Source: Clostridia bacterium (GTDB lineage: Bacteria > Bacillota > Clostridia > Oscillospirales > CAG-272). Taken from it: a stretch of 56,717 bases of DNA. Every line of letters begins with the position of its first letter. The first letter of the stretch is position 1. Below, in pieces: positions 8,843 to 51,634 of the stretch. The position numbers were made by a program, and so were the translations under genes. Under the pieces are notes generated by a model. It searched no databases and had not been told where the DNA came from. It worked only from the letters and a program-made list of their open reading frames with translations. Where the stretch lies: positions 1 through 56,717 of the forward strand of contig JAGBIA010000109.1 in the NCBI GenBank assembly GCA_017935225.1. Reading direction: 5' to 3'.

Positions 8843-8863
8843 ACGAACACAAGGAGTCAAGCT

Positions 8864-10708: not shown

Positions 10709-10728
10709 AAATCACAAAGGAGCACGCT

Positions 10729-30510: not shown

Positions 30511-30515
30511 CTGGT

Positions 30516-31940
30516 TTAAAGTATAGGAGTCTTACAATACTGTTCAAGCACGTATCTGTACGTGTTGGTCTTGTTCTGGTGGATAGGATACAGAACAACT
30601 CCCTGTCCTCCGTCCTCTTCGACGAGCAAATAAGCATCGGTCTGGACGTCGTGGTGCTGAGACACCTTAGTGCTGACGATAAGCGAGTTAAACTTACCGA
30701 TCGAGCGGAATCCAACGTGGTAGCCCTGATCTTTAGACCACCAATAAGAGAAACCGCCGTTGTATACCGAACGGGTATGCTCGTGCATAACAAATCCGGT
30801 AGCACCCTGGTCGTTGTAGCAGATGTCGTAGTTGTTACCGTCACTCATATCGTAAAATCCGATACTGTCGTTTCCAAGTGAGGGGGGAATGAGCGGATGG
30901 AGATTACGGAAGATATTTCTCTCGCCCGTCTCTGTTGCCTGAGTTCCGTACATAATGGATGCGATACGCATATTCGCGATGGTGTTGTAGCTTCCCTCCA
31001 CAAGAACTCCTACCGAATCCTTGGTGTCCGAGCCGGTGACGTTCACGTTATCCACGTTTGCCCAAGTTGCTCCAAGCTCGTTGGGGCCCTTCTTGATATG
31101 AATTCCTACCACTGCGGACTTGATAGATACATTGTAAATGTAGGTATCCTTGCTGCCCTCAACCGAGATACCAGAGGCGTAACCACTACCGTAGATACAG
31201 CCGCCGATGATATGAATGCTTCTGTAATTCATCATCTCGACCTCTTCCATGGTAAGAGGCTCAGCACCCTCCTCCTGCTCGGTCACACCGACGCGTATCA
31301 TTGCAAGATTGCGGTCGGGCCATTTGGGATCTGCTCTCAAAACAGCCTGATTGGCAAGTCTGAGCGAAACGCTCTTCTCAGGATCTGCGGGAATTACTAT
31401 CGGCTCGCTCAGCATATAGTTTCCGTCAGGAATATAAATGGTTCTACCGGGGTTCTCGGCGATAAATCTGTTGATGAGCTGTGAATAGGTCTCATCGGTA
31501 TCCTTACGCGCTTCGTCGCAAACCACAACGTAGCCCAGCTCCTCAAAGCTGAGTTCCTTGTCTATATCGTCCTCTTCCTCATCGACTGCATCTGCAGGTT
31601 TCTTATCAAGGACCTTTGCGGTGGTTATGTAGTCACCTACACAGATCTGAGATGCCGCGAACTTGCCGCGAAGTTCGGTTATGTCGCCTATTGATCCTTC
31701 GGGAGCTGCGTCAGCTCTTACCGTTACGGTCTCGATCTTGTCGTTAGTGAATTTTCCGCCGTACTTAATGTCGTCGACCACACGAAGCACCTGCACGTAC
31801 TCACTATTATTCTCCGCGCCGTCCTCTGCGGTGTCATCCACAGAGGTGTTGCAGGAGCTGAGCACTCCAAGTGCAAGCGTCATGCAAAGCACGAGTAATA
31901 ACACGCGCTTTGTTATTTCATTGAATTTTCTCTTGTTCAT
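30516..31940 (-). CDS. SAF-like / right-handed beta-helix (Pectate_lyase_3-like) lipoprotein, array paralog 16/16 in transcription order, subtype A
   Basis: ATG 31940 after AGAGG (the track ORF extends to 32024). Lipobox VLSS|C. SAF-like VQVLRVVDDIKYGGKF...VGDYITTAKVL. GYVVVCDE...RTIYIPDGNYMLSEPIVIP, then beta-helix coils. C-terminus CKTPIL. Confidence 0.75.
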   Translation of the reverse strand: MNKRKFNEITKRVLLLVLCMTLALGVLSSCNTSVDDTAEDGAENNSEYVQVLRVVDDIKYGGKFTNDKIETVTVRADAAPEGSIGDITELRGKFAASQICVGDYITTAKVLDKKPADAVDEEEDDIDKELSFEELGYVVVCDEARKDTDETYSQLINRFIAENPGRTIYIPDGNYMLSEPIVIPADPEKSVSLRLANQAVLRADPKWPDRNLAMIRVGVTEQEEGAEPLTMEEVEMMNYRSIHIIGGCIYGSGYASGISVEGSKDTYIYNVSIKSAVVGIHIKKGPNELGATWANVDNVNVTGSDTKDSVGVLVEGSYNTIANMRIASIMYGTQATETGERNIFRNLHPLIPPSLGNDSIGFYDMSDGNNYDICYNDQGATGFVMHEHTRSVYNGGFSYWWSKDQGYHVGFRSIGKFNSLIVSTKVSQHHDVQTDAYLLVEEDGGQGVVLYPIHQNKTNTYRYVLEQYCKTPIL

Positions 31941-31956
31941 TAGTATACCTCTTGGA

Positions 31957-33357
31957 TCAAAGGATCGGTGTGGGACAATGCTGCTCGAGCATATCTTCGT
32001 ACTTGTCGCTCTGGCTTGAATCAATGGGGTAAAGAACTATTCCCTGTCCGCCTTCCTGCTCGATGTAGAGATAAGCGTCGGTCTCGATGGTGTGTCCGTG
32101 AGATACCTTACCCGAAACGATTATCGAGTTAAATTTACCGATCGCTTTATAACCCACATGATAGTTGTTGGCATCGGAATACCAATAGCAGAAACCGCCA
32201 TTCATTACAGAGCGGGTATTTTCGTGTACAACGTATCCCGCTGCAAACTGGTCGCTGTAGCAAACATCAAAATTGTTACCGTTACTCTTATCGTAGAAGC
32301 CTACAGTTTCCTTGCTGGATGCGCTTGCAAGCGGGTGCAGGTTTCTTAAAATATTTCTCTCTCCCGTCTCAGTGCACTGGATACCGTGTCTGAAGAGATA
32401 GATACGCATATTAGAGAAGGTATTATAGGTTCCCTCAACGAGAACACCTACGGAATCTGCTTTGTCGGTACCGGTGAGATTTACGTTATCTACGTTTACC
32501 CATGTCGCTCCGAGTTCATTGTTGCCTCTGTAAACGTGGATACCGCGGCTGGCAGCCTTTATGGATACGTTATAAATATAGGTATCCTTGCCGCCCTCAA
32601 CAGAAATTCCGCTTGCTACGTTCGAGCCGTAAAGACAGCCGCCGATGATCGAGATGCTTCGATATCCCATCATGTCGATCTCATCCATCGTAAGAGGCTC
32701 ATCGGTCGGTTCCTCAACGCCAACACGAATCATAGCAACGTGGGGATCCTCCCACTTGGGATCAGCCGACAGAACTGCCTGATTTCCGAATCTGAGCGAA
32801 ACGCTCTTCGCGGGATCAGCGGGGATCACGATCGGCTCCTCGATGAAATACGAACCGTCGGGAATATAAATAGTTCTTCCGGGATTTTCCGCGATCACTC
32901 TGTTGATAAGCGCGGCATATCCCTTCTCGGATTCCTGTCTCTCGTAATCCGTGATGACAACGTAGCCGAGAGCTCTATAATCGGGCTTTTCGATCTCCTC
33001 CTCGTCCTCGTCCTCGGTTGCGTCCACAGGTTTCTTATCGAGCAACTTTGCGGGAGTAATGAAGTCTCCCACCAAGATAGCCGAAGCTGCATACTTATTG
33101 TAGAGCTCACCCGTAGTCTTGATAGCGTCAGCAGGAACTGCATCCGCCCTTACTCGAACGGTCTGGAGCTTGTCGCTTGTAAACTTGGCGCCGTATTTGA
33201 TATCATCTACGACTCTGAGGACCTCAACGTATTCGCTCTGCTCTTCTGCGGGTGCTTCTGATGCGCTCGCCATCGGAAACGCACCGAGGAGCATAAAGGC
33301 ACAAAGCAAAAACAAAAGTGCTCTCATTGTGTTTTTCTTAAAAACAAAATTCGTCAT
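31957..33357 (-). CDS. SAF-like / beta-helix secreted protein, array paralog 15/16, subtype A
   Basis: RBS AGGAGGG. SPase-I-type signal (AFPMASA|SEA). VEVLRVVDDIKYGAKF...VGDFITPAKLL. GYVVITDY...RTIYIPDGSYFIEEPIVIP. C-terminus HCPTPIL. Confidence 0.75.
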   Translation of the reverse strand: MTNFVFKKNTMRALLFLLCAFMLLGAFPMASASEAPAEEQSEYVEVLRVVDDIKYGAKFTSDKLQTVRVRADAVPADAIKTTGELYNKYAASAILVGDFITPAKLLDKKPVDATEDEDEEEIEKPDYRALGYVVITDYERQESEKGYAALINRVIAENPGRTIYIPDGSYFIEEPIVIPADPAKSVSLRFGNQAVLSADPKWEDPHVAMIRVGVEEPTDEPLTMDEIDMMGYRSISIIGGCLYGSNVASGISVEGGKDTYIYNVSIKAASRGIHVYRGNNELGATWVNVDNVNLTGTDKADSVGVLVEGTYNTFSNMRIYLFRHGIQCTETGERNILRNLHPLASASSKETVGFYDKSNGNNFDVCYSDQFAAGYVVHENTRSVMNGGFCYWYSDANNYHVGYKAIGKFNSIIVSGKVSHGHTIETDAYLYIEQEGGQGIVLYPIDSSQSDKYEDMLEQHCPTPIL

Positions 33358-33378
33358 ACGTATACCCTCCTGAATTTA

Positions 33379-34785
33379 TTAGTGGAGGATATCGGTAGAG
33401 CAGTACTTCTTGAGTGCGGTCTCGTCAGCGATACCGCTTACAGTCTGATCGATGGGGTAGTAAACAAAGCCTTCGCCGCCCTCGGTCTCAACGAGGATAT
33501 ATGCCTCAGTGGCAACGGTCTCAGTATTTGTTACCTTGCTGTAAGAAATGGTGGAATTGAGCTTACCTTCGGTGCGGAAACCTACGTGATAGTCGTTGTC
33601 AGCAGACCACCAGTTAACTACGCAAGCATTGTAGATCGAGCGAGTGCGCTCGTTAACAAGGAATCCGGTTGCGTACTGGTCGCTGTAGCAGATATCGTAC
33701 TGGTTACCGTCACTGAGATCCCAAAAGCCTGCGTTGTCCTTACCGGAAATACCCGTGCCGATAGCGTGGAGGCTGCGGAATACGTTGTTGGAACCGGTCT
33801 CGGTGCACTTGAATGCGTACTGAGCATCCGAAACTCTCATATTTGTGAGTGTGTTGAGTGCGGACTCAACGAGAACACCGATAGAGCCTTCCTCACCGTT
33901 ACCTACTACGTGTACGTTCTCGATATCAGCAGCGGTAGAGTGCGTGCTGTTCTCGGGATCGATGAGGTGGAGACCTACGTACGCGTTCTTGACGGTAAAG
34001 TTAGCAAACGTAACGTCCTCGTTACCCTCAAGTGTAACACCCGAAGCCACGCCCGATGCGTCGATAACACCGCCCATGATGTAAACGTTTCTTGCATCGT
34101 GGTCGACACCGCCAACAGTTTCCTTATCTTCGCCGTCAGCGTAAACGCCCATACGGATCATAGGCTTGGTCTTGTCGCCCCAGCTTGCTGCCGCCTTGAT
34201 GGTAGCGTAGTTGGAAAGGCGGAAGGAAACGCTCTTGGTAACGTCTGCGGGGATAACGATAGTGTCGGAAATTTCATAAGTTCCGTCGGGGAAATAGATA
34301 GTTGCGTTGGGATTCTCCTCGATCGCCTTCTTGATAGCAGCGGTGTAGTCGTTGCCACTGACGAGCGAAGCATATTCCGTAATAAGAGTATACGCGATCT
34401 CGCCATCGACCTTGTTAATAACCTCGTCCTCCTTGGGCTCCTCAACAGAGAGCTTAGCGGGGGTCACGAAGTCGCCAACGTAAAGATCAACGACTGCATA
34501 CTTGCCGGCTACGTCGGCAATAGTCTTTGCGGCATTGAAGGGCAGGTCCAAAGCTCTGAGAGTTACAAGCTCGAGTGCATCCTCGGGGATGATCTCGCCC
34601 ACCTTGACAGCCTTCTTGACTCTTACGACCTCAACGAGAGTTTCATTCTTCTGTGTTTCGTCGCTGCCTGCGGGCTCTTCTTCCTTATTACAAGCAGTCA
34701 GCGCAAAGAGCGACACTGCCATGCAAAGACAAAGAAGAACTGCGAGTACACGACCGATAATATTCTTAAAATTGTTGTTTTTCAT
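33379..34785 (-). CDS. SAF-like / beta-helix lipoprotein, array paralog 14/16, subtype A
   Basis: Lipobox ALTA|C. VEVVRVKKAVKVGEII...VGDFVTPAKL. ATIYFPDGTYEISDTIVIP. C-terminus YCSTDILH. Confidence 0.75.
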   Translation of the reverse strand: MKNNNFKNIIGRVLAVLLCLCMAVSLFALTACNKEEEPAGSDETQKNETLVEVVRVKKAVKVGEIIPEDALELVTLRALDLPFNAAKTIADVAGKYAVVDLYVGDFVTPAKLSVEEPKEDEVINKVDGEIAYTLITEYASLVSGNDYTAAIKKAIEENPNATIYFPDGTYEISDTIVIPADVTKSVSFRLSNYATIKAAASWGDKTKPMIRMGVYADGEDKETVGGVDHDARNVYIMGGVIDASGVASGVTLEGNEDVTFANFTVKNAYVGLHLIDPENSTHSTAADIENVHVVGNGEEGSIGVLVESALNTLTNMRVSDAQYAFKCTETGSNNVFRSLHAIGTGISGKDNAGFWDLSDGNQYDICYSDQYATGFLVNERTRSIYNACVVNWWSADNDYHVGFRTEGKLNSTISYSKVTNTETVATEAYILVETEGGEGFVYYPIDQTVSGIADETALKKYCSTDILH

Positions 34786-34803
34786 TTTCAGTTACCTCCG
34801 ATC

Positions 34804-36258
34804 TCAGTCTTCCTTTTTAGCAGGAATGGGGCTGAGCACGCTTGTTCCGTCCTCAACGTAAGCAGAGGTGGCATCAGAAGCATCGCAAAGTGCGGGATCG
34901 TATACAGGAGATACTACTCTTCCATTTCCGCCCGCTCCTGCTCTGAGATAGAAGTTCGGGCTCTCTCCGTCAAAGAATTCAGCCTCACAACCAACGATCG
35001 CACTGCCAAGCTTACCGCCGCCGCAGTCGAACATAATGCTGGCTCTTCCGGTGTCCTTAGTCCAGATAGCCAAGCACTGCTTATAGAAGCCGCGCTTTCC
35101 GCCTACCGAGAAAGCTACGTCACAGTTGATAGCAACACAGTTTGAGATCCAAGCCTCGCCTCCGGTATAACCTACCACGTTCTCCATATCGGTAGTATTC
35201 TCTATCGTACAGTTATTGAGGAAAACACCGCCTGTGGTCTGGATGCCCGTCTTTACGTTAGAAATTCTTGCATTGCTGATAGTGTTATCAAGACCTATCA
35301 TCGTGATACCGATAGAATTGGAAAGACCGTTACCGATAATGGTTACGTCATCGATATCAGAGTCAGAGGACTTGTTGTTGGTACCGTCCTTGATGTGAAT
35401 ACCGTAACGGGTATTAACGATAACAACATCCTTGATAAGAGTCTCACGGCCGCCGTCGATAGAGATACCGTCAGCCTTGCCGTTTCCGTCAAAGATACCG
35501 CCCATTACGTAGAAGTTACTTCCGGGAACTCTGATGTTGTTTACGGGTTTTTCCTCTACAGTTCCGAGACAAATAAGCGCTCTGAGCTGTCCATCATTCT
35601 TCCACGCATCTGCTGCCTTAAGAATAGCGCCGCTCGAGAAGTAGAAGGAGATACTGTCCTTAGGCTCGGAGCAGGTCTTAAGCGAGCGGGAGATAATATA
35701 CTCACCGTCGGGGAAGTAAAGAGTTCTTCCGGGATTCTTATTGATAAGCATCTGGAGATTGTCGTAGAGATCCTCACCGGTGTTAGGCTTAACATAGTCG
35801 GTTACGACCAAAAATTCGCTGTCAGACTTGGTGATCTCCTGCCTGATAGTATCGTCATTGATCTCAAGAGGCTTCGTGCCCGAAACTCTCTTGGATATAA
35901 CGTAGTCACCCTTGTAAAAGTCCTTGGTTGCATACTTACCTGTAACCTTGGCACTCTCGGTAACAACGTTTCTGGGAAGATTTTCGGGATCCATCTCGAT
36001 CACGTCAAGCATCTTCTTTGTGATCTTGGTGCCCTTAGGTGCATCGGTGTTGAAAACAAGCACATCGACCATGCCGTTTTCGTTAAGCACGTGAATCGTC
36101 TCGCTCTCGCTTCCCTGCTCTACCTCATCGGTAGCATCGGTATCCGTGGGTTCTTCCTTGTTGCAGGAGCTCATAAATACCGCGCCGCAGATGAGCGTCA
36201 GGCAAAGGAACGCACAAAGCAGACGAGCCATTTTGTTTTTAACGTTTGTCTGTCTCAT
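34804..36258 (-). CDS. SAF-like / beta-helix lipoprotein, array paralog 13/16, subtype B
   Basis: RBS AAGGAGA. Lipobox FMSS|C. RTLYFPDGEYIISRSL. GSNFYVMGGIFDGNGKADGISIDGGRETLIKDVVIVNTRYGIHI. Confidence 0.75.
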   Translation of the reverse strand: MRQTNVKNKMARLLCAFLCLTLICGAVFMSSCNKEEPTDTDATDEVEQGSESETIHVLNENGMVDVLVFNTDAPKGTKITKKMLDVIEMDPENLPRNVVTESAKVTGKYATKDFYKGDYVISKRVSGTKPLEINDDTIRQEITKSDSEFLVVTDYVKPNTGEDLYDNLQMLINKNPGRTLYFPDGEYIISRSLKTCSEPKDSISFYFSSGAILKAADAWKNDGQLRALICLGTVEEKPVNNIRVPGSNFYVMGGIFDGNGKADGISIDGGRETLIKDVVIVNTRYGIHIKDGTNNKSSDSDIDDVTIIGNGLSNSIGITMIGLDNTISNARISNVKTGIQTTGGVFLNNCTIENTTDMENVVGYTGGEAWISNCVAINCDVAFSVGGKRGFYKQCLAIWTKDTGRASIMFDCGGGKLGSAIVGCEAEFFDGESPNFYLRAGAGGNGRVVSPVYDPALCDASDATSAYVEDGTSVLSPIPAKKED

Positions 36259-36338
36259 AAGTTTCTCCTTGTTTTATTGGGTATAATAAAATATTTTTAC
36301 AATAATTTATTCAGAGTTTGTTGTGCCTTCTCTATTTA

Positions 36339-37751
36339 TCAATAGATAGGATCGTTGATCAGATAATCCTTGGAATCGTCATTCTCGGATACCTTGTTGG
36401 GATTGAAGTATACGGTATCGATAGTTCCCTTTCCGCCTTCCTCGCCAACAAGCAGGAAGTTGCACTCGGTTCCCTTGTCAGCGTGTCCGACGTCGGAGCT
36501 GCTGTAACGGATGATACAGTTGAACTGTCCTTCGCAAACGTAGGAGTTGTGTATTCCGTTGTTAGGGGAGTACCAAAAGTTAAAGCAGCAATCAAGCACG
36601 GAAGCGGTGTCCTTGCCGAAGTAGAAGCCGGTTGCGAACTGGTCGTTGTAGCAGTTATCGTAGAAGTTGCGCTTACCTACGTCATAGAACGCTACGCTAT
36701 CCTTGTAAGTCTCATTAGGATTGAGTCCGCCCTCGAAGATGTAAAGCGGATGGAGGTTACGAAGGAAGTTCTCCGAGCCTGTAAGCTTAATAGCGATCTG
36801 GTTACTTGCGATACGCATATTTGTAAGAGTATTGTCGTTAGTATCAAGGACGACGCCGTAGGAGTCTACAGTGCCGCAGCCTACGATATTAACCGTGTGA
36901 ACGTCAGCAGTAGGTCCGTTGCCGTTCTCGTCAGCCTTAACGTGAATACCCACAACGGTATTCTTGATAGAGCTGTATCTGATAGAAACGTTACCTGCGC
37001 CCATTACCCAGATAGCGTCTGCCTTGTCAGAACCGTCAAGGATACCGCCCTCGAGCGAGTAGTGATATGCTGCAGAAGCAAATTCCTCAGTCATATCGGT
37101 AGCGCCGAGCTTAAAGAGAGGCTCACTTCTGGTCTCCCAGGAATCCATAGCCTTAAAGTGAGCAAAGTTGCCAAGCTTGAAGGACACAGTCTTTGCGGGG
37201 TCAGCCGAGGTAGTGATCGGCTTTGCGAGCATATACACGCCGTCGGGGAAATAGAGAGTTCTGTTGGGATTCTCGTCGATAAGCTTCTGGATATCATCCG
37301 AAACGTCCTCACCCGTGTCGGGCTTGAGGTAATCGGTCACCATAACGTAGCCTGCGTCCTCGAAGTTGATGATTCCGTCGTCCTCGTCAACTATCGCATC
37401 ACCGTTTTCGTCTACGTTGGAAGGTCTCTTATCGGCAAGCTTTACGGGGAGGAAATACTCACCTGCGTACATCGCGGTGGTTGTGAACTTACCGAGAACG
37501 TCGTCTATGTTAAGTATAGTTCCTTCAGGAAGATCAGCCTTATTTACCTGAACCTCCTCAAGCTTTGCACTCGTGACCTTAGTACCGTACTTGATATTTT
37601 CCTTGAGTCTTACAACGGTTACTTTTTCTTCGTTGGAAGCACCGTTATCACCTGTGGGCTCATCGTTCTTATTGCAGGAGACGAGGAATCCGCCGCACAG
37701 CATAAGAAGACAAAGCAATATGCAAACTGTATTTCTGAATATATTCTTCAT
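36339..37751 (-). CDS. SAF-like / beta-helix lipoprotein, array paralog 12/16, subtype A'
   Basis: ATG 37751, 9 nt after AAGGAGA (the track ORF extends to 37775). Lipobox FLVS|C. RTLYFPDGVYMLAKPI. C-terminus KDYLINDPIY. Confidence 0.75.
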   Translation of the reverse strand: MKNIFRNTVCILLCLLMLCGGFLVSCNKNDEPTGDNGASNEEKVTVVRLKENIKYGTKVTSAKLEEVQVNKADLPEGTILNIDDVLGKFTTTAMYAGEYFLPVKLADKRPSNVDENGDAIVDEDDGIINFEDAGYVMVTDYLKPDTGEDVSDDIQKLIDENPNRTLYFPDGVYMLAKPITTSADPAKTVSFKLGNFAHFKAMDSWETRSEPLFKLGATDMTEEFASAAYHYSLEGGILDGSDKADAIWVMGAGNVSIRYSSIKNTVVGIHVKADENGNGPTADVHTVNIVGCGTVDSYGVVLDTNDNTLTNMRIASNQIAIKLTGSENFLRNLHPLYIFEGGLNPNETYKDSVAFYDVGKRNFYDNCYNDQFATGFYFGKDTASVLDCCFNFWYSPNNGIHNSYVCEGQFNCIIRYSSSDVGHADKGTECNFLLVGEEGGKGTIDTVYFNPNKVSENDDSKDYLINDPIY

Positions 37752-37771
37752 ATTGATCATTCTCCTTTTAA

Positions 37772-39193: not shown

Positions 39194-39257
39194 AATCAAT
39201 TCTCCTTTCATAACACAATTTTCACCCAAAGCGAAAGTTCGCATTATGCATCAATGT

Positions 39258-39286
39258 ATTATAACATACGAAATCTGCAAAGTCAA
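39258..39286 (-). promoter_or_regulatory. Internal sigma-A promoter within the array
   Basis: On the minus strand: TTGACT (rc 39281-39286), 17-nt spacer, TGtTATAAT (rc 39258-39266). A hairpin AAAGCTG...CAGCTTT plus a T-run lies just upstream (about 39335-39365). Confidence 0.55.
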
Positions 39287-39374
39287 TACTTTTAATTATT
39301 CACAGATAATTTTTGTGCATCTTGCACAAAAATAAAGCTGCTGCAAAAAGCGACAGCTTTAAGGTAATTTTTAT

Positions 39375-40766: not shown

Positions 40767-40785
40767 ATTTTCTCCTTTGCTTCAA

Positions 40786-42183: not shown

Positions 42184-42257
42184 ACATTCTCCTTAATTTT
42201 ATTAGGAAAGGCTCGGTCAGCTGCTCGCCGACCGAGCCAAGTGATAAGATCTTTCGA

Positions 42258-43280: not shown

Positions 43281-43347
43281 TTTAAATTCCTCCGTTATTA
43301 TATTTTGTATCGAATACCAATTTTACGGTGTAATATCCGTTTTGTTC

Positions 43348-43407
43348 ATTATACCATATCAAAAAAAGCAAGTCAATTCCTTTTGGAGAAATTAAACTTG
43401 CTTTTTT
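43348..43407 (-). promoter_or_regulatory. Terminator hairpin fused to a sigma-A promoter (module 1)
   Basis: On the minus strand: AAAAAAGCAAGT...AATTGACTTGCTTTTTTT. The 3' arm carries the -35 TTGACT (rc 43371-43376). A 17-nt T-rich spacer leads to TGgTATAAT (rc 43348-43356). Confidence 0.6.
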
Positions 43408-43449
43408 GAAAAATTTTTATATTTTTATGCAGTTTTTACAAAAACCGAC

Positions 43450-44484
43450 TCAGATAATTCTACCCGTAACGAACTTCTTGTAGGTCTTATCGGTAACGAG
43501 GTTATCGTCGATGATGGGATTGTCGATAAATCCGTGTCCGCCTGCGCCCTCGGGAAGAACGAGAACTGCGTTATTGGTAGTGTCGCCTCTGAAGTGGATC
43601 TTGGGGTTGGTGATCGACGCGTTGAAGTCGCCGTCACACTGGAAGCCGACCTCCTTGTTTCCTCTGGGGGAGTACCACATAATGAATGCGTTTACGATAA
43701 CAGCCTTGGAGCCGGGGATGAGCTTGTAGCCTGTAGCCATCTGATCGCTGTAGCAGTAGTCGTACCAGTTGGTGCCCGATACTTCCTCAAGGAACGCGAT
43801 GCTGTCCTCGAAGTTTATATCGTCCTCTGCATACTCGTAGCCGTAGATGAAGAGCGGGTGGATATTGCGCAGGCAGTTTCCGCCGCTGCGGAGCTTGATA
43901 CCTACCTCGATAGCAGCTATACGCATATTGGTAAGAGTATTGTCGTAGCCCTCGATAAGAACGCCAACAGAGCCCTTCTTGTTGTTACCTACGATATTTA
44001 CGGTCTCGATATCAGCGTCGGAAGAGCCGTTGTTTGCGCCGCGCTTGATGTGGATACCGATAAATGTGTGCTTGATGGATACGTTGCGGATAGAGGTCTC
44101 ACGTCCCGAGTCGATGGAAATTCCGTTTGCAACGCCGTTTCCGTCAACGATACCGCCTGCGAAAGAGTAGTTGCTTCCGTTGCGGTAGATGGTGTTATAA
44201 GGCTCAGCCGCGCCGAGTCTTACCATAGCCTCGGTGTGATCCCAACCGTCAGCAGCCTTGAGGACAGCGAAGTTGGAGAGCTGGAGAGATACTGCGGTCT
44301 CAGGCTTGCCCGAGGTGCAGATCGGCTTTGCGAGGATATACTCGCCGTCGGGGAAATATATTGTTCTCATGGGGTTCTCGTCGATGATCTTCTGGATGGC
44401 ATCAGACACGTCCTTACCCGTGTTTGCCTCAAGATAATCTGTCACTACTACGTAGCCGAGAGCGTTTGCGTTGATATCGTTCAT
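43450..44484 (-). CDS. Beta-helix protein, short signal-less form, array paralog 7/16, subtype D
   Basis: RBS GGAGGAAAA. MNDINANALGYVVVTDYLEANTGKDVSDAIQKIIDENPMRTIYFPDGEYILAKPICTS. Confidence 0.75.
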   Translation of the reverse strand: MNDINANALGYVVVTDYLEANTGKDVSDAIQKIIDENPMRTIYFPDGEYILAKPICTSGKPETAVSLQLSNFAVLKAADGWDHTEAMVRLGAAEPYNTIYRNGSNYSFAGGIVDGNGVANGISIDSGRETSIRNVSIKHTFIGIHIKRGANNGSSDADIETVNIVGNNKKGSVGVLIEGYDNTLTNMRIAAIEVGIKLRSGGNCLRNIHPLFIYGYEYAEDDINFEDSIAFLEEVSGTNWYDYCYSDQMATGYKLIPGSKAVIVNAFIMWYSPRGNKEVGFQCDGDFNASITNPKIHFRGDTTNNAVLVLPEGAGGHGFIDNPIIDDNLVTDKTYKKFVTGRII

Positions 44485-44534
44485 TGTTTTTTCCTCCGTT
44501 TAGAGATTTTTCGGCGTGTGCCGTTCTTATAGTA

Positions 44535-44595
44535 ATTATAACATACAAAAAATAGCAAGTCAATCACTTTTTTGCAATTGACCTGCTATTTTTTA
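44535..44595 (-). promoter_or_regulatory. Terminator hairpin fused to a sigma-A promoter (module 2)
   Basis: On the minus strand: TAGCAGGTCAAT-TGCAAAAAAGTG-ATTGACTTGCTA plus a T-run. -35 TTGACT (rc 44558-44563), 17-nt spacer, TGtTATAAT (rc 44535-44543). Confidence 0.6.
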
Positions 44596-44605
44596 GCTTA
44601 AACTC

Positions 44606-45619
44606 TTAATTTCTGTGTACCACGTGGCCTACGAGGTAGTCCTTATAGGTCTCGTCGTCGCAGTTCTCGGGGGTAAAGATCGGGTTCTCTACGATTCCGA
44701 GTCCACCGCTCTCGCTGACCTTAAGGAACGCGCGGTTGGTGCAGTCGCCGCGAAGAGCGATATTTGCGTTGCAGATGCTTGCGGCAAACTTGCCCTCTTC
44801 ACACTCAAATCCCACGTACTTAACTCCGCGGTTGGAGTACCACATACCGAAGCAGTGTTGGAATACGGGGGTTGCGCCGCCCTTGAATCTGAATCCCGTT
44901 GCCATTTCGTCGCTGTAGCAGTAGCTGTACCAGTTGTTGCCCCAGCTCTGATCGTCAAACGCGATACTCTTGGTCTGATCGACCTCTCCGCCGTAGATAA
45001 AGAGCGGATGGATGTCGCGCAGCGAGTTGCCCGCACTCTTCATAAGAATACCTGTCTGAACCGACGCGATACGCATATTGCGCACCGTGTTGTCGTAACC
45101 CTCGAGGAAAACTCCGACAGAATTTTCCTTGTTGTTACCAACGACGTTGACCATCTCGATATCCGAGTCGGACGAGCCGTTGTTTGCGCCGCGCTTTACG
45201 TGAATACCGATCTGTGTATTCTTGATAGAAATGTGAGAGATGAGAGTCTCACGTCCCGAGTCTACCGAGATACCGTTTGCGACACCGTTTCCGTCGATGA
45301 TACCGCCCTTGAAGTGATAGTTGCTTCCGGGGATGGTGATGCTGTTGAACGGATAGATTCCGCCCATGCGTACAAGCGCCTCGGGGCTGTCCCATCCGTC
45401 TGCCGCCTTGATGATAGCGAAGCAGGAAAGCTCGAGAGATACTGCGATCCTCGGGTCTGCGGGGGTGCAGATCGGCTTTGCGAGCAGGTACTCACCGTCG
45501 GGGAAATAGATAGTCTTGTGGGGGTTATCGTTGATTATCTGCTGAAGCGCATCCGAGACGTCCTTACCTGTATTCGCCTCGATATAATCCGTAACTACTA
45601 CGTATCCGTTGTTATTCAT
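44606..45619 (-). CDS. Beta-helix protein, short signal-less form, array paralog 6/16, subtype D
   Basis: RBS AGAGG. MNNNGYVVVTDYIEANTGKDVSDALQQIINDNPHKTIYFPDGEYLLAKPICT. Confidence 0.75.
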   Translation of the reverse strand: MNNNGYVVVTDYIEANTGKDVSDALQQIINDNPHKTIYFPDGEYLLAKPICTPADPRIAVSLELSCFAIIKAADGWDSPEALVRMGGIYPFNSITIPGSNYHFKGGIIDGNGVANGISVDSGRETLISHISIKNTQIGIHVKRGANNGSSDSDIEMVNVVGNNKENSVGVFLEGYDNTVRNMRIASVQTGILMKSAGNSLRDIHPLFIYGGEVDQTKSIAFDDQSWGNNWYSYCYSDEMATGFRFKGGATPVFQHCFGMWYSNRGVKYVGFECEEGKFAASICNANIALRGDCTNRAFLKVSESGGLGIVENPIFTPENCDDETYKDYLVGHVVHRN

Positions 45620-45646
45620 AATCTACCTCTTTTTTTATTCTTAGAT

Positions 45647-46669
45647 TTAAAGATTTGTCATATCCTTGTCTACGACATACTTCTTGTAGGTGTGGTCGTT
45701 ATACTGCTCGGGAACGATAAGCGGATAGCTGATAGTTCCCTGTCCGCCCTCCTGCGTTTCGGTCAGATATGCCTTGAACTCGCACTCGTGGCGGTCGAAG
45801 ACGTTGCAGCTGCGAAGCACCGAGTTAAATCTTCCGTCTGCGTGGAATCCGACAGCCTTACCGCCTCTGCCCGTGTACCAATAGCAGATACAGTCGGTGT
45901 AGATCTGGCGCGCGCCGTCTTTCATACGGAAGCCGACTGCGAACTGATCGCTGTAGCAACAGTTATATATGCTGTGGAACCAGGTGTCGTCCCAGAATGC
46001 GCAGCTTGCCTTGAATACCTCGTCCTTCTCGAGATCGCCTCTGAAGGTGTAGAGAGGATGGATGTTCTTCATAAGCTGAGAGGATGCAAGAATCTTAAAT
46101 CCGAACTGAACGCCCGCGATACGCATATTGGTAAAGCTGTTGTCCGAGCCCTCGATGAGCACGCCGACCGAGCCTTCCTTGCAGTTGCCCACGATGTTTA
46201 CGTTCTGCACGTCAGCGTCCGAGGAGTTCGAGTTTGCGCCGTGCTTGATGTGAATTCCGACGAAGGTATTCTTGATCGACACCTTCTCGATAAGAGTCTC
46301 GCGTCCCGAGTCGATGGAAATTCCCTTTGCAACTCCGCTACCGTCGATAATACCGCCGAAAATGCCGTAATTGCTTCCGTTTATTCTGATATTGTTAAAG
46401 GGCTCAGCCGCGCCGAGACGAACCATAGCCTCGTCGCTGTCCCATCCGTCTGCCGCCTTGAGAGTTGCGAACTTTGAAAGTTCGAGATTTACTGCATTAG
46501 CTCCGTTTGCGGAAGTGCAGATCGGCTTTGCGAGGATATATTCTCCGTCGGGGAAATATATCGTTCTGTGGGGATTTTCGTCAATTATCTTCTGTATTGC
46601 ATCCGATACGTCCTTGCCCGTATTAGCCTCGACGTAGTCGGTTACAACAATATAACCTTTATCGTACAT
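45647..46669 (-). CDS. Beta-helix protein, short signal-less form, array paralog 5/16, subtype D
   Basis: MYDKGYIVVTDYVEANTGKDVSDAIQKIIDENPHRTIYFPDGEYILAKPICTS. The C-terminal third is closely related to the 46691 copy. Confidence 0.75.
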   Translation of the reverse strand: MYDKGYIVVTDYVEANTGKDVSDAIQKIIDENPHRTIYFPDGEYILAKPICTSANGANAVNLELSKFATLKAADGWDSDEAMVRLGAAEPFNNIRINGSNYGIFGGIIDGSGVAKGISIDSGRETLIEKVSIKNTFVGIHIKHGANSNSSDADVQNVNIVGNCKEGSVGVLIEGSDNSFTNMRIAGVQFGFKILASSQLMKNIHPLYTFRGDLEKDEVFKASCAFWDDTWFHSIYNCCYSDQFAVGFRMKDGARQIYTDCICYWYTGRGGKAVGFHADGRFNSVLRSCNVFDRHECEFKAYLTETQEGGQGTISYPLIVPEQYNDHTYKKYVVDKDMTNL

Positions 46670-46690
46670 AATTTACCTCTCTTTTAATGA

Positions 46691-47716
46691 TTATAAGCTT
46701 GTAATTTCCTTATCTATAAGATATTTTTTGTATGTGTGGTCGGTGAACTGCTCTGGTTTGATCAGCGGATGGCTTATCACACCCTGTCCTCCCTCCTCTG
46801 CCACCGCGAGATACGCTTTGACCTCGCACTCGTGACGGTCGTCAACATGGCAACTGCGGAGCACAGAGTTGAATTTTCCGTCGCAGTAAAAGCCGATCGC
46901 CTTACCGCCTCTTCCGCTATACCAATAGCAGAGACAGTCTGTGTATATCAAGCGCGAACCGCCTCTCATACGGAATCCGACCGCGAACTGATCGCTGTAG
47001 CAGGAATTGTACAGTCCGTGCGTCCAGGTATCATCCCAGAACGCGCAGCTCTCCTTATACACCTCGTCCTTTGCGAGATCCCCTCTGAAGCTATAGAGCG
47101 GGTGAATACTTTTAAGATGCTGGGAAGAGGCGAGTATCTTAAAGCCGAACTGAACACCGGCTATACGCATATTTGTAAACGTATTATCACATCCTTCGAC
47201 AAGAACGCCCACAGATCCTTCCTTGCAGTTGCCGACAATATTTACGTTCATAATATCGGCATCGGAAGAATTGACGTTTGCTCCGTGCTTGATGTGTAGA
47301 CCGATCTGTGTATTTTTAATAGACACCTCGCGGATGAGGGTTTCTCTTCCGCTATCAATAGACACGCCGTTGGCAATACCGCTTCCGTCAATGATACCGC
47401 CGATCATTCCGTAGTTGCTTCCGTTTACGGTTATGGTATTGAAAGGCTCTGCCGCGCCAAGACGTACTATAGCCTCATTTTCGGACCACTCTTCAGACGC
47501 CTTAAGCGTCGCAAATTTGGAAAGCTCAAGCGACACCGCGTTAACGGGATTTGCAGGGGTGCAGATCGGCTTTGAAAGGATATACTCACCGTCGGGAAAA
47601 TATACCGTTCTGTGGGGATTTTCGTCAATGATCTTCTGTATCGCGTCGGATACGTCGATACCTGTGTTAGCCTCGATATAATCGGTAACTACTACGTAGC
47701 CTCTGTTTTCGATCAT
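46691..47716 (-). CDS. Beta-helix protein, short signal-less form, array paralog 4/16, subtype D (mosaic)
   Basis: MIENRGYVVVTDYIEANTGIDVSDAIQKIIDENPHRTVYFPDGEYILSKPICT. The N-terminal part resembles the 47735 copy and the C-terminal part resembles the 45647 copy. Confidence 0.75.
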   Translation of the reverse strand: MIENRGYVVVTDYIEANTGIDVSDAIQKIIDENPHRTVYFPDGEYILSKPICTPANPVNAVSLELSKFATLKASEEWSENEAIVRLGAAEPFNTITVNGSNYGMIGGIIDGSGIANGVSIDSGRETLIREVSIKNTQIGLHIKHGANVNSSDADIMNVNIVGNCKEGSVGVLVEGCDNTFTNMRIAGVQFGFKILASSQHLKSIHPLYSFRGDLAKDEVYKESCAFWDDTWTHGLYNSCYSDQFAVGFRMRGGSRLIYTDCLCYWYSGRGGKAIGFYCDGKFNSVLRSCHVDDRHECEVKAYLAVAEEGGQGVISHPLIKPEQFTDHTYKKYLIDKEITSL

Positions 47717-47734
47717 TGCTTTTCTCCTTTGCTT

Positions 47735-48751
47735 TTATATTACTCTGCCAACGAGATACTGCTTGTAGGTCTCGTCGGTCACTCTCTCGGTAATGGGATT
47801 TTCGATAAATCCGTGTCCGCCTTCCTCTGCGACCGTGATATACGCGTTGTTATCGTTGCTGTTGCGGTTAAAGTGAACTCTGCAGTCGCGGATGATCGAA
47901 TTGAACTTTCCGTCTACCTTGAAGCCTCTCTCGAGTCCGTCAGCCTTGTACCAATAGCAGAAGCAGTCAGCATATGTCAGTCTTGCGCCGTCTTTCATAC
48001 GGAAACCTGTCGAGAACTGATCGCTGTAGCAGTTGTTGTACCAGACCTCGTGATTTGTGTCGTCCCAGAATGCACAGCTCTCTGCGTAGCGACCTGCCAA
48101 TCCCGCGTCGTAGGTATAGAGCGGGTGGAGATTTTTGAGAAACTGCGAGGGAGCGAGTATCTTGAAACCGATCTCGATATGAGCGATGCGCATATTCGTA
48201 AAGGTGTTGTCGCAACCCTCTATCAGCACGCCGATAGACTCGGGCTGACCGTTACCCACGATATTTACGTTCATAATATCGGCATCAGAGGAATTGGAAT
48301 TTGCTCCGTGCTTGATGTGGATACCGATATGTGTATTTTTAATAGATACCTCGCGGATGAGAGTCTCTCTGCCGCTGTCGACCGAAACACCGTTAGCGAC
48401 ACCGCTACCGTCGATAATACCGCCGATAATACCGTAATTGCTTCCGTTTACGGTTATGGTATTAAAGGGCTCTGCCGCGCCAAGACGGACGATCGCCTCC
48501 TTCTCGGTCCAATCCTTTGATGCCTTTAAAGTGGCAAACTTAGACAGCTCAAGCGAGACAGCGTTTACGGGGTTCGCCGAGGTGCAGATCGGCTTTGAGA
48601 GGATATATTCGCCGTCGGGGAAATATATCGTTCTGTGCGGATTTTCGTTGATGATCTTCTGAAGCTCGTCCGAGACATCCTTTCCGGTGTTCGCCTCGAC
48701 GTAGTCTGTGACCACTACGTATCCGAATGCGTTTGCGTTGATATCCTTCAT
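47735..48751 (-). CDS. Beta-helix protein, short signal-less form, array paralog 3/16, subtype D
   Basis: ATG 48751 after AAAGGAGG (the track ORF extends to 48817). MKDINANAFGYVVVTDYVEANTGKDVSDELQKIINENPHRTIYFPDGEYILSKPICTS. Confidence 0.75.
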   Translation of the reverse strand: MKDINANAFGYVVVTDYVEANTGKDVSDELQKIINENPHRTIYFPDGEYILSKPICTSANPVNAVSLELSKFATLKASKDWTEKEAIVRLGAAEPFNTITVNGSNYGIIGGIIDGSGVANGVSVDSGRETLIREVSIKNTHIGIHIKHGANSNSSDADIMNVNIVGNGQPESIGVLIEGCDNTFTNMRIAHIEIGFKILAPSQFLKNLHPLYTYDAGLAGRYAESCAFWDDTNHEVWYNNCYSDQFSTGFRMKDGARLTYADCFCYWYKADGLERGFKVDGKFNSIIRDCRVHFNRNSNDNNAYITVAEEGGHGFIENPITERVTDETYKQYLVGRVI

Positions 48752-48793
48752 TTTTTCTACCTCCTTTTGTGGCAAATACCACTTATTGAGTTC

Positions 48794-48853
48794 ATTATAA
48801 CACACAAAAAAAAGCAAGTCAATTCCTTTTGAGAAATTGACTTGCTAAATTTT
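48794..48853 (-). promoter_or_regulatory. Terminator hairpin fused to a sigma-A promoter (module 3)
   Basis: On the minus strand: perfect 12-bp arms AGCAAGTCAATT / AATTGACTTGCT with a 10-nt loop, then T8. -35 TTGACT (rc 48817-48822), 17-nt spacer, TGtTATAAT (rc 48794-48802). Confidence 0.65.
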
Positions 48854-48868
48854 CATCAGAATTTTCTA

Positions 48869-50257
48869 TCAGCCGCCCCAGACTACCTTGCCAACAAGAT
48901 AATCCTTATATGTGTCGTCATCGCACGCGCTCTCGGGGAATGCGGGATATTCAACTATACCGTTGCCGCCCTCCTCGCCGACGATCATAAATCTGCCGTC
49001 GGTCTGCTTTTCAAGGTCAACGCGGTAGTTCTTGAGAACAGAGTTGAACTTTCCGTCGGACGCAAAGCCGTACTGCTTCTGTCCCTCTTCTTTTCTGTAC
49101 CAATAAGCATAGCAGTTGTTGTAGACCGACATAGTGTGACCGCTGGTGCGGAATCCGATAGCGAAGTTATCGGGATAGCAGATATCGTAGGTGTTACCCT
49201 CACTCGTATCCCAGAAGCCTATACTGTCGCTGTAATCGTAGTTACTTGTATAGATGAAGAGCATATGGAGATTGCGAAATATGTTATTCTTTCCGTTAGC
49301 CTTGGTAGCTACCTGGAAGCTTGCTACTCTCATATTGGTAAAGGTGTTTCCGTCGCTGTCAACGAGAACGCCGACAGAGTCGGGAAGATTGCAGCCGACG
49401 ATGTTTACCGTCTCAATATCGGCGTAGCTCGAGGGGCTCTCGTCGTTGAGCGCGATGTGAAGTCCCTGCGTAACGAACTTGATCGATACGTATCTCACCG
49501 AGGTCTCAAGTCCGCCTGCGACCTCAACTCCTCTTGCCTTATTAGAGCCGTCAATGCAGCCGCCCTCCATATAGTAGTTGCTTCCTACCTCGTCGACCGT
49601 AAATGTCTTGTCCTTGCCGCCGAGCTGGATCATATATCCGTTAGCGTCATCCCAATCAGAAGCCGCCTTGATAATAGCAAAGGTCGAAAGTCTGAGCGAT
49701 ACTGCCTTTTCGGGATCGCTCGAGGTGATAAGGGGCTTGGAGATCAGATATTCTCCGTCGGGGAAATAGATAGTGGTATTGGGGTTCTCGTCGATGATCT
49801 TCTGAAGCTCTGCGGAAACGTCCTTACGAGAATTTATTCTTATGTAATCGGTAACTACGACGTAGCCCTTAGCCTTTGCGGTCTCTGCATCAAGCTCCTC
49901 CTCGGGCTCTTCCTTGGAGGATGTCTTTTTCTCAAGCATAGAGTCTGTAATGATATCTCCCGCCTTGACGTCAGCAAGAAGCTTTCTGCCGACAGCGTCG
50001 GTCGTTTTAGCAAGATATCCCTCGGGTACTGTCGATGCATCGACCTCTACCGTCTCAAGTGCGGTAATGCCAAAGAACGAACCCGCAGCCGTGTCCTCTT
50101 TTGCCTTAACGACTCTTACAAGAAGAGTGCTCTCCTGCTCGGAGGGCTGCTGTTCTTCTCCGCCACCGTTGCAAGCGCAGAGCGCAAGCATAACTACCGC
50201 GAGCACTGTGCACACGACAGATCTGAATAATTTATTTACTGAAAATCTGTTTTTCAT
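48869..50257 (-). CDS. SAF-like / beta-helix lipoprotein, array paralog 2/16, subtype C
   Basis: Lipobox LALCA|C. LLVRVVKAKEDTAAGSF...AGDIITDSML. GYVVVTDYIRINS..TTIYFPDGEYLISKPL. C-terminus GKVVWGG. Confidence 0.75.
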   Translation of the reverse strand: MKNRFSVNKLFRSVVCTVLAVVMLALCACNGGGEEQQPSEQESTLLVRVVKAKEDTAAGSFFGITALETVEVDASTVPEGYLAKTTDAVGRKLLADVKAGDIITDSMLEKKTSSKEEPEEELDAETAKAKGYVVVTDYIRINSRKDVSAELQKIIDENPNTTIYFPDGEYLISKPLITSSDPEKAVSLRLSTFAIIKAASDWDDANGYMIQLGGKDKTFTVDEVGSNYYMEGGCIDGSNKARGVEVAGGLETSVRYVSIKFVTQGLHIALNDESPSSYADIETVNIVGCNLPDSVGVLVDSDGNTFTNMRVASFQVATKANGKNNIFRNLHMLFIYTSNYDYSDSIGFWDTSEGNTYDICYPDNFAIGFRTSGHTMSVYNNCYAYWYRKEEGQKQYGFASDGKFNSVLKNYRVDLEKQTDGRFMIVGEEGGNGIVEYPAFPESACDDDTYKDYLVGKVVWGG

Positions 50258-50275
50258 TTCTTCACCTCTTTACAA

Positions 50276-51634
50276 TCAACTGTTCCAGATTACCTTTCCT
50301 ACAAGATGGTTCATATAGCTGGTATTGTTTACCTTACTCTTATCGAATATCGGATATTGAATAACACCCTTTCCGCCCTCGGAACCGAGGTTAAGGAACA
50401 TACAATTCGAGTCCTCTCCGAACTCAGCTCTGAAGTTGGATACTATCGAGCTGAAGCGTCCGTCGGTCGCGATAGCGGTCTGTGAGGTCGCCTCGGGAGA
50501 AGTCCAGCTCGCGATACAGTCGTTCATCATATCAAGCGCTCCGCCTCTGATCCTGTAGCCCGTGCGGAAGCCCTCAGCGTGAAATCCGTCCATCCAGTTG
50601 CTTCCGTTGGAGTCGAGGAAACCTATGCTGTTGTTATAATCCCAGCTGTCTCTGTGCTCGTAGACCGCGTGTACGTTGTGCATAAGGTTTCCGCCCTTGG
50701 TAAGCTGCATTCCGATCTCAAAGCCGCTGATGCGGATGTCGGTCAGAGTGTTGTCAAGTCCGTCAACGTGAACGCCGATCGAACCGGGAAGATAGCAGCC
50801 CTCGATATCGATAGCCTCGAAGTCGCAGTCGTTAGAGCCATACACCTGATTGTACGCGATCTTGAGTCCCTGAGTTACGTTCTTGATCGAGATCTGACGG
50901 ACCGAGGTCTCACGTCCGCCCTCAAGAATAATTCCCTTTGCCTTGCGGTTACCGTCGATAATGCCGCCGTACATATAGTAGTTGCTTCCCGTCTGGCTGA
51001 TGGTAAAGGTCTCGTCTATTGCACCGAGCTGGATCATATGCTCGGCTCCGCCTCTCCAGCGGTCAGACGCCTTGATGACCGCAAAGCCCGAAAGATGCAA
51101 CGAGACCGCCTTCTGAGGATTGCTCGAGGTCATAATAGGCTTTTCTATCGTATAAACTCCGTCGGGGAAGAAGATAGTCTTTCTCGGGTTCTTGTCGATG
51201 ATCTCCTGTATCTTGTCGGTCAGGTTCTCGCCCGTGTTCGGTTCAAGATAGTCGGTGACGACCACGAATCCAAGCTTTTTTGCAAGAGGAATGGTTATAT
51301 TTGACGTATCGACTTTCTTTTTCTCAGCAAGCATAGAGTCACCGATCACGTCGCCCGCCTTAATGTCAACAAGAAACGCGCGCCCTACTATCTCGTTTGT
51401 CTTTATCAGATAATCGTCTGGGGCGAGAGATCTTTCGACTTCAACCACCTCAACATCCTTTACTCCAAGGACCTCTCCCGCCGCCGCATCGACCTTTACG
51501 CGAAGGGCCTTTACGAGCAGCTTGGGAGCCTCGGTACCTGCTTCTTCTCCGCCACCGTTGCACGAACAGCTGAAAAGCACCGTCACGGCAAGAAGTATAA
51601 AGGCAAGCGCCTTGATAACCTTTCTTTTTTTCAT
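50276..51634 (-). CDS. SAF-like / beta-helix lipoprotein, array paralog 1/16, subtype C
   Basis: Lipobox LFSCS|C. LLVKALRVKVDAAAGEV...AGDVIGDSML. GFVVVTDYLEPNTGENL..KTIFFPDGVYTIEKPI. C-terminus GKVIWNS. Confidence 0.75.
   Translation of the reverse strand: MKKRKVIKALAFILLAVTVLFSCSCNGGGEEAGTEAPKLLVKALRVKVDAAAGEVLGVKDVEVVEVERSLAPDDYLIKTNEIVGRAFLVDIKAGDVIGDSMLAEKKKVDTSNITIPLAKKLGFVVVTDYLEPNTGENLTDKIQEIIDKNPRKTIFFPDGVYTIEKPIMTSSNPQKAVSLHLSGFAVIKASDRWRGGAEHMIQLGAIDETFTISQTGSNYYMYGGIIDGNRKAKGIILEGGRETSVRQISIKNVTQGLKIAYNQVYGSNDCDFEAIDIEGCYLPGSIGVHVDGLDNTLTDIRISGFEIGMQLTKGGNLMHNVHAVYEHRDSWDYNNSIGFLDSNGSNWMDGFHAEGFRTGYRIRGGALDMMNDCIASWTSPEATSQTAIATDGRFSSIVSNFRAEFGEDSNCMFLNLGSEGGKGVIQYPIFDKSKVNNTSYMNHLVGKVIWNS

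Follow-up and report, generated by a model that had tools for sequence, protein, structure and literature searches.

We examined a 56,717-nucleotide stretch of DNA (hereafter the window; contig JAGBIA010000109.1 of assembly GCA_017935225.1) from an uncultured gut Clostridia bacterium of ruminants, and focused on a tandem array of genes encoding beta-helix proteins. The array occupies positions 30516-51634 of the minus strand and consists of exactly 16 consecutive, intact paralogous open reading frames (ORFs; g1 to g16, Table 1), which encode proteins of 337-484 amino acids. A six-frame hidden Markov model (HMM) scan recovered exactly 16 cores and 10 N-terminal SAF modules, and no extra fragments. 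The 16 proteins could be aligned over the whole core, with 27-62% identity to g1, and the motifs GYVVVTDY, TIYFPDGEY, GGIIDGSG, GRET, CYSDQF and WY were present in the aligned sequences. The original prediction for this locus, of 16 back-to-back minus-strand paralogues built on one core, was thus confirmed by the ORF list, the alignment and the HMM scan.

All of the genes start with ATG, preceded by a Shine-Dalgarno sequence at normal spacing in each case except g5 and the upstream ATG of g6. The ATG of g5 overlaps the stop codon of g6 and follows just a weak ribosome-binding site (RBS); g6 itself likely starts at an internal ATG at position 39193, which has an RBS and is the start also chosen by public gene calls. 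The array is similar in GC content to its flanks.

Domain architecture and fold of the array proteins

The core had been assigned to the Pectate_lyase_3 type of right-handed beta-helix, and profile searches, structural models and structural comparisons all supported this assignment. PF12708 matched all 16 proteins at E <= 0.01 (best E 2.1e-11), which we treat as superfamily-level evidence, because at least g1, with 16.5 bits, falls under the 27-bit gathering score. The AlphaFold2 (AF2) model of g10 is a right-handed beta-helix with a predicted local distance difference test score (pLDDT) of 94.5 and a predicted TM-score (pTM) of 0.93. For g15 (pLDDT 87), the model comprises a leader helix (residues 8-27), a SAF domain (46-112, pLDDT about 90), a disordered acidic linker and the beta-helix (130-462).

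Foldseek comparisons of the g10 and g15 models to the PDB returned 41-80 matches at E <= 1e-3, and among the best 50 listed for each model all were beta-helix enzymes, tailspikes or the adhesin PfbA. These included Lam55A of glycoside hydrolase (GH) family 55, GH28 and GH87 enzymes, the lyase RbmB, AlgE epimerases, DFA-IIIase, and the tailspikes of Sf6, HK620 and phi29 (prob 1.0, TMq up to 0.63-0.70, identity 10-18%). Tailspikes and predicted phage "pectate lyase superfamily" proteins in BFVD likewise matched the model structurally. At the sequence level, a PDB profile search yielded matches to GH55 (E 3e-4 to 3e-3) and GH87 (E 0.014) through the N-terminal opening motif of about 40 residues alone; it found no similarity across the catalytic domain to characterised GH55, GH28, GH87 or polysaccharide lyase (PL)-type enzymes, and no close solved structure for the core family. 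The low structural identity and the motif-limited sequence match place the core within the superfamily and outside every characterised family, so that neither profile nor structure searches gave it a functionally defined home. Among family members elsewhere, source names were all "hypothetical protein", save one automatic "GH55, partial"; the initial view that the family could not be named therefore stands.

The array shares with GH55, GH28, GH87, RbmB, AlgE, Sf6 and HK620 proteins the fold and the opening motif x-D-x-x-A-I-Q-x-x-I ... Y-F-P-x-G-x-Y, and, as in beta-helix enzymes and tailspikes, conserved acids lie in successive core segments (D114, E129, D156/D158 and D181). It differs from these enzymes in its compact size of about 330 residues, in its own C-terminal part rich in cysteine and aromatic residues (CYSDQF, WY), and in that no CAZy family can be assigned. 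We conclude that the core family is probably carbohydrate-active, as an uncharacterised right-handed beta-helix of the pectate-lyase/tailspike superfamily.

Ten of the proteins (the long forms g1 to g8, g15 and g16) carry an additional N-terminal module, as had been proposed. SAF domain PF08666 matched all ten (best E 6.3e-9) and none of the short forms, and an acidic linker lies between this domain and the beta-helix in each. A rule-based check identified a hydrophobic leader in the ten genes, with a lipobox cysteine (L/M-x-[SAG]-C) in nine; the leader of g2 instead ends in an Ala-x-Ala site of the signal-peptidase-I type, and g9 to g14 are without a leader. The first 100 or so residues of the long forms match the NCBIfam model of CpaB, TIGR03177, over positions 3-101 of 262 (best E 2e-9), with a best score (about 33 bits) well short of the 71-bit cut-off; the long forms do not qualify as full-length CpaB/RcpC proteins. 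The C-terminal model of FlgA gave a further weak, sub-threshold match to the same N-terminal part, and weak PDB sequence matches connect the SAF module to FlgA and to the SAF domain of pseudaminic acid synthase. The long forms therefore resemble CpaB/RcpC and FlgA in having an N-terminal leader and a SAF domain, but the remainder of CpaB is absent and a beta-helix stands in its place. When the SAF module was used as a profile to look for other proteins with the same anchor, only 11 truncated fragments of the same family were retrieved, and a combination of lipobox, SAF domain and beta-helix did not turn up in literature searches, including those for tandem PF12708 paralogues.

Residue conservation and selection

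We identified eleven polar residues that are near-invariant in single-copy members of the family from several phyla: D114, R128, E129, K138, D156, D158, D181, N182, R188, H209 and D247 (g10 numbering). We scored 513 family members for these positions. All eleven were kept in 65 of 66 leaderless members and in 124 of 129 members with a signal peptide or transmembrane (TM) helix only, but in 14 of 226 SAF-fused members; this contrast, of 96-98% in non-SAF members to 6% in SAF-fused ones, does not represent independent events, because the SAF sequences are phylogenetically clustered. The losses are substantial, with 80% of the SAF-fused members retaining eight or fewer of the eleven, and they are patterned: D114 to Y/F/N, D156 to Y/W/F, D181 to Y/H/G, E129 to D/N, D158 to N and R128 to K. 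The SAF-fused members still conserve N182 and R188, from which we take it that folding does not require the lost residues. A functional site is the best reading for residues that can be lost without loss of the fold but are otherwise invariant.

The same division is seen within the array. Each of the leaderless proteins g9 to g14 keeps 11/11 residues. In g1 and g2 the three aspartates D114, D156 and D181 have become Y/W/Y, and g3, g5, g7 and g15 have lost three to five of the eleven. The acids are kept in g4, g6 and g8, which have lost K138 plus H209 and/or D247, and g16 shows the single change D247E. The replacement of aspartate by aromatic residues would represent a classic route from an enzyme to a sugar-binding protein.

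We estimated selection from orthologues in contig L001 (RGIG3900), a metagenome-assembled genome (MAG) from roe-deer caecum that is collinear and 86-92% identical. Every testable gene except g13 has a collinear, conserved orthologue under strong purifying selection. The ratio dN/dS was 0.01-0.05 for g9 to g12 and g14 (98-100% amino-acid identity, dS 0.15-0.3) and 0.06-0.14 for the SAF forms g3 to g8, g15 and g16; g13, which lacks a clean orthologue in L001, gave 0.09 at 79% identity. Values of 0.01-0.14 indicate functional genes, and diversifying selection was not seen.

Two further observations concern individual copies. In L001 (6769-8836), a relative of about 88% identity, a copy 98% identical to g12 takes the place of g13 and is followed by a short copy without a counterpart in the window. 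This points to leaderless copies having been gained, lost or replaced recently. In L077 (2644-4032) and L078 (2881-4269), which represent a relative of about 91% identity, the orthologue of g15 is split into ORFs of 163 and 254 amino acids, whether through a frameshift, a stop or a misassembly, and the g12/g13 pair is a single gene.

Distribution, operon signals and genomic context

Genome contigs were searched with a profile of the six short forms. Arrays of at least 7 to 14 copies are confined to close relatives (L001-L004 and L006-L008), and smaller runs of 3-4 copies occur in L010, L011 and L018; wherever the flank is present, the arrays adjoin the same P-type ATPase. Copy number, which the original prediction had suggested comparing among related genomes, does vary: L007 has at least 8 copies, the part of L004 that was retrieved has 13, the window has 16, and L077/L078 have one short copy fewer than the window.

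Outside these relatives, a genome with the family almost always has one gene only, of 330-400 amino acids, with 50-55% identity to the short forms and usually with a plain signal peptide directly before GYVVVTDY. The hosts include Acutalibacteraceae, Oscillospiraceae, Alistipes/Rikenellaceae, other Bacteroidales, Prevotella, Verrucomicrobia and Selenomonadaceae, from herbivore gut. For a Bacteroides-type query the family comprises 1,777 clusters at the 90% identity level (E <= 1e-10); at the 50% level, 232 representatives passed E <= 1e-30. No conserved gene neighbours were found for the single-copy homologues, which lie beside DapB, TruA, UvrC, RpsF/SSB, a nitroreductase, a HAD phosphatase, PnuC and similar genes. 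In the Clostridia MAGs L021 (2591-4483) and L022, the only copy is leaderless and sits immediately upstream of a PnuC homologue, which matches the junction at the end of the array. A single leaderless copy upstream of pnuC is the probable ancestral state.

In rare fusions among distant members, the core is combined with GH43, with CBM9 or with a collagen-repeat GDSL esterase (P0254, P0274 and P0323), partners that point to carbohydrate work. In other lineages (L051 9737-12387, L039, L040, L046 and L054) a core with an intact site is tethered to the membrane in different ways, either by a lipobox and an Ala/Glu-rich coiled-coil stalk (L051 has two such copies in tandem) or by a TM helix and a linker of about 50 amino acids, indicating that anchoring of this helix evolved more than once.

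Within the array we identified five promoter-like sites on the minus strand (11/12 score and a TG extension), located exactly in the five larger gaps, before g16, g14, g10, g9 and g6. The predicted transcription units are g16-g15, g14-g11, g10, g9-g8-g7 and g6-g1. P2, P3 and P4 have in common a module composed of a hairpin (AGCAAGTCAATT...AATTGACTTGCT) and a T-run, with the -35 box of the following promoter lying inside the 3' arm of the hairpin. The module sequence occurs six times within two mismatches, against 0.02 expected, and four of the six are arms of the P2, P3 and P4 modules; these terminator/promoter modules are kept at matching places in L001, L007, L077 and L078. On its sequence features the array reads as five ordinary, constitutive-looking operons, with strong sigma-70-type promoters and hairpin terminators. 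The hairpin module could also serve as an operator for a dimeric regulator.

Table 1. Genes and transcription signals of the beta-helix array, listed from the higher to the lower coordinate. Positions are those of the window; residue changes follow g10 numbering.
Feature	Position	Strand	Description	Remarks
P1	51697..51725	-	Promoter-like, TTGACA-17-TAAAAT, TG-extended, before g16	
g16	50276..51634	-	Predicted lipoprotein + SAF + beta-helix, 452 aa	10/11 conserved polar residues kept (D247E); C-terminal Cys/Tyr motif diverged
g15	48869..50257	-	Predicted lipoprotein + SAF + beta-helix, 462 aa	R128L, D156Y, D181G; AF2 pLDDT 87
P2 module	48794..48853	-	Hairpin terminator after g15; 3' arm carries -35 of P2 (TTGACT-17-TATAAT, TG-extended) for g14-g11	
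g14	47735..48751	-	Leaderless canonical core, 338 aa	11/11 conserved residues kept
g13	46691..47716	-	Leaderless canonical core, 341 aa	
g12	45647..46669	-	Leaderless canonical core, 340 aa	
g11	44606..45619	-	Leaderless canonical core, 337 aa	
P3 module	44535..44594	-	Terminator/promoter module between g11 and g10	
g10	43450..44484	-	Leaderless canonical core, 344 aa, own predicted transcription unit	AF2 pLDDT 94.5, pTM 0.93
P4 module	43348..43405	-	Terminator/promoter module between g10 and g9-g8-g7	
g9	42258..43280	-	Leaderless canonical core, 340 aa	Groups with g15/g16 SAF forms in neighbour-joining tree
g8	40786..42183	-	Predicted lipoprotein + SAF + beta-helix, 465 aa	K138V, N182S, H209R, D247E
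g7	39375..40766	-	Predicted lipoprotein + SAF + beta-helix, 463 aa	D114N, R128G, E129N, D156T, D181N
Terminator	39340-39357	-	Terminator-like hairpin after g7	
P5	39258-39286	-	Promoter-like, TTGACT-17-TATAAT, TG-extended, for g6-g1	
g6	37772..39244	-	Predicted lipoprotein + SAF + beta-helix, 473 aa from 39193	K138V, D247T
g5	36339..37775	-	Predicted lipoprotein + SAF + beta-helix, 470-478 aa	R128G, E129N, D156T
g4	34804..36258	-	Predicted lipoprotein + SAF + beta-helix, 484 aa	K138V, H209T, D247I; C-terminal domain most divergent of 16
g3	33379..34785	-	Predicted lipoprotein + SAF + beta-helix, 468 aa	R128E, E129D, D156A, D181L
g2	31957..33357	-	Predicted signal peptide without lipobox + SAF + beta-helix, 466 aa	Asp 114/156/181 = Y/W/Y
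g1	30516..31940 (ATG; TTG ORF extends to 32024)	-	Predicted lipoprotein + SAF + beta-helix, 474 aa	Asp 114/156/181 = Y/W/Y
Array-end terminator	30475..30517	-	Hairpin with 21-nt arms, then T-run, ahead of pnuC promoter	

The genes surrounding the array are mostly housekeeping genes. A P-type ATPase, ArsR and AsnA lie on the higher-coordinate flank, upstream of the array, and PnuC, a lipoprotein of 260 amino acids, tRNA-Leu and LepA lie downstream. No glycosyltransferase, sortase, recombinase, reverse transcriptase or phage gene was found near the array among the ORFs of the window, as had been noted at the outset; the accompanying statement that no transporter adjoins the array has to be amended, since the flanks hold two, PnuC and the P-type ATPase, neither of them a sugar transporter. 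These flanks offer no adjoining glycan transporter, regulator or other carbohydrate-active enzymes, and we agree with the earlier view that the locus is not a polysaccharide-utilisation locus (PUL). A genomic island was likewise rejected: the GC content is like that of the flanks, relatives have the locus in synteny, and no integrase is present. Rfam detected tRNA-Leu alone in the window and no riboswitch or regulatory RNA in the array, and neither Tad/Flp pilus genes nor flagellar genes were found among the scanned window ORFs.

The predicted 260-amino-acid lipoprotein (28834-29616, plus strand; leader ...LGAFTSCAGC) has several Cys and His residues and no Pfam match, and gave a very weak match to the SAF-module profile (E 0.0025). 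Outside the array the window contains, besides housekeeping genes, another tandem array (1681-12642, plus strand) of six BspA-type leucine-rich-repeat (LRR) proteins (PF13306, E down to 5e-144), each of which opens with a near-identical membrane anchor, MKRALIIIAIILL...NNYAETGS. These N-termini look homogenised among the copies, in contrast to the beta-helix array. An ORF at 474-1580 (plus strand) resembles peptide chain release factor 2, by reading of the sequence.

Possible functions and evolution of the array

The locus had been put forward as a dedicated system for surface variation or glycan depolymerisation. We find it better described as a lineage-specific tandem expansion of paralogues in five ordinary operons. 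We propose, at a probability of roughly one half, that this expansion has produced leaderless, enzyme-like copies and lipid-anchored SAF copies, most of the latter probably non-catalytic glycan binders. One leaderless gene beside pnuC would have multiplied in place to 8-16 copies in this clade, and the copies would then have split into two classes. The first class (g9 to g14, without an export signal) would comprise active enzymes inside the cell, probably acting on imported oligosaccharides; these are the most strongly conserved copies, and they lie behind strong promoters. The second class (g1 to g8, g15 and g16) would have acquired a module related to the start of CpaB, composed of a lipoprotein signal, the SAF domain and the acidic linker, which would tether the helix at the outer face of the membrane. 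Six of these proteins (g1, g2, g3, g5, g7 and g15) would be non-catalytic, lectin-like glycan binders of diversified specificity, and g4, g6, g8 and g16 may still be enzymes.

Several points weigh against this proposal. The signal peptides and lipoboxes were called by simple pattern rules. The 226 SAF-fused sequences come mostly from arrays of one clade, and we infer the catalytic role of the eleven residues solely from their conservation. The retention of acidic residues in g4, g6, g8 and g16 means that the label of binder cannot cover all ten SAF forms. Finally, six predicted-cytoplasmic paralogues of a usually secreted fold are odd, and a sugar transporter is absent nearby.

A bolder form of the same proposal, which we offer tentatively as a possibility, is a pseudoenzyme radiation, in which a widespread, uncharacterised gut glycosidase or lyase fold was coupled to a CpaB-derived anchor, three active-site aspartates were repeatedly replaced by aromatic residues, and the products became tethered, lectin-like receptors that work with leaderless catalytic siblings. 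Were this true, the array would be the Gram-positive equivalent of the proteins that bind glycans at the surface of Bacteroidota, with a different fold and without a PUL. The proposal would parallel the lipid-anchored non-catalytic binders that stand beside catalytic relatives in Bacteroidota PULs, and the chitinase-like lectins, in which an enzyme fold becomes a binder on losing its catalytic residues. The array differs from PUL systems in that there is no SusC/SusD and no transporter or regulator in the locus, the fold is another one, the host belongs to the Clostridia, and binding is predicted.

An alternative that we regard as unlikely is that all 16 proteins are active glycan depolymerases of differing specificity, the SAF copies having a shifted or alternative catalytic set, so that the locus would encode a multi-substrate battery for the surface and the cytoplasm. 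The fold and the Pfam family are indeed common to many GH and PL enzymes and phage depolymerases, every copy is under purifying selection, and the four SAF forms that keep their acids would fit such a battery. Beta-helix enzymes also place their catalytic residues differently between families. However, the residues that nearly all non-SAF members keep are replaced in 94% of the SAF forms, often by aromatic or neutral residues at the three aspartates together, and replacement of this kind is the usual signature of a loss of catalysis and not of retuning. The depolymerase part of the original prediction is accordingly plausible for some of the copies, but not for the locus as a whole: six of the ten predicted surface copies have lost several acidic or basic residues, and the copies with a fully intact site are without an export signal.

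Rather improbable, in our view, is a role unrelated to glycans, in which the SAF lipoproteins would be envelope or adhesion proteins that bind host or microbial proteins or organise the wall. The beta-helix would then be no more than a rigid scaffold, for which PfbA and the chlamydial Pmp proteins offer parallels. The loss of the site in the surface copies would suit any non-enzymatic role, surface proteins are also encoded by the other tandem array of the window, that of the BspA-type LRR genes, and PfbA of Streptococcus pneumoniae is the second-ranked structural match. The latter resembles the array proteins as an enzyme-like beta-helix of a Gram-positive surface, termed an adhesin by its depositors. 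PfbA is a single LPXTG-anchored protein, whereas the array has ten genes with an anchor of lipobox and SAF type in one locus, and identity to PfbA is 11-13%. The fusion partners of the distant family members (GH43, CBM9 and the GDSL esterase) speak against a non-glycan role, the gain of aromatic residues at formerly acidic positions would be typical of sugar-stacking platforms, and the leaderless and the periplasmic or secreted canonical forms are hard to see as adhesins.

Phase or antigenic variation, the surface-variation half of the original prediction, would have the leaderless copies serve as silent cassettes that recombine into SAF expression sites, or promoters that switch. Copy number differs among relatives, and in a neighbour-joining (NJ) tree without support values the SAF and leaderless forms are interleaved (g9 with g15 and g16, and some SAF forms of L002, L004 and L007 with the g10/g11 clade), as if the N-terminal module had been gained or lost now and then, more than once, over evolutionary time rather than on the timescale of switching. 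The remaining evidence makes this explanation very improbable. No invertible repeats were found around the promoters in the array DNA apart from terminator hairpins, nor any homopolymer or simple-sequence tracts, and the longest exact DNA match between any two paralogues is 30 nt, on which ground a gene conversion or cassette model was rejected. Each leaderless copy has its own RBS and ATG and sits in an operon with a strong promoter. The half of the array containing g1 to g8, with its flanks, is 99.96-99.98% identical over 7.6-13.4 kb in three other metagenome assemblies of the same strain, and the orthologues in L001 are collinear and show no sign of diversifying selection. Switching of the operons by DNA rearrangement is not supported. 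The array does resemble the chlamydial Pmp autotransporters, which are also beta-helical, and the mycoplasma Vlp/Vsa lipoproteins in that many surface paralogues are encoded together, but it lacks switching features and an autotransporter domain, and six of its members have no export signal.

A prophage tail or depolymerase remnant, or an anti-phage defence locus, is hardly credible: the tail-spike PHROG matches are weak and limited to 6 of the 16 proteins (best E 6.5e-10), the resemblance to phage tailspikes is structural and one distant core (P0319) does lie inside a phage baseplate protein (BppU_N ... Gp10_C), but the window has no phage genes, no integrase and no PADLOC defence-model matches, tblastn gave a single weak match among 50,697 phage records, and related species have the locus in synteny, set between housekeeping genes, in keeping with the earlier view that this is not a prophage tail module.

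We conclude that the SAF-anchored architecture and the enzyme-to-binder pattern are a new variation on known themes. The core family is common in herbivore-gut metagenomes and extends over at least four phyla at about 50% identity, without a name, a structure or a known substrate; because it is widespread yet unnamed, defining its activity would add a carbohydrate-active family. The array itself is a natural series within one locus, from an intact site to an aromatic-substituted one, and is suited to the study of the change from enzyme to binder. Should the surface copies prove to be glycan receptors, they would be relevant to the question of how uncultured Clostridia of ruminants capture their substrates without cellulosomes or PULs.

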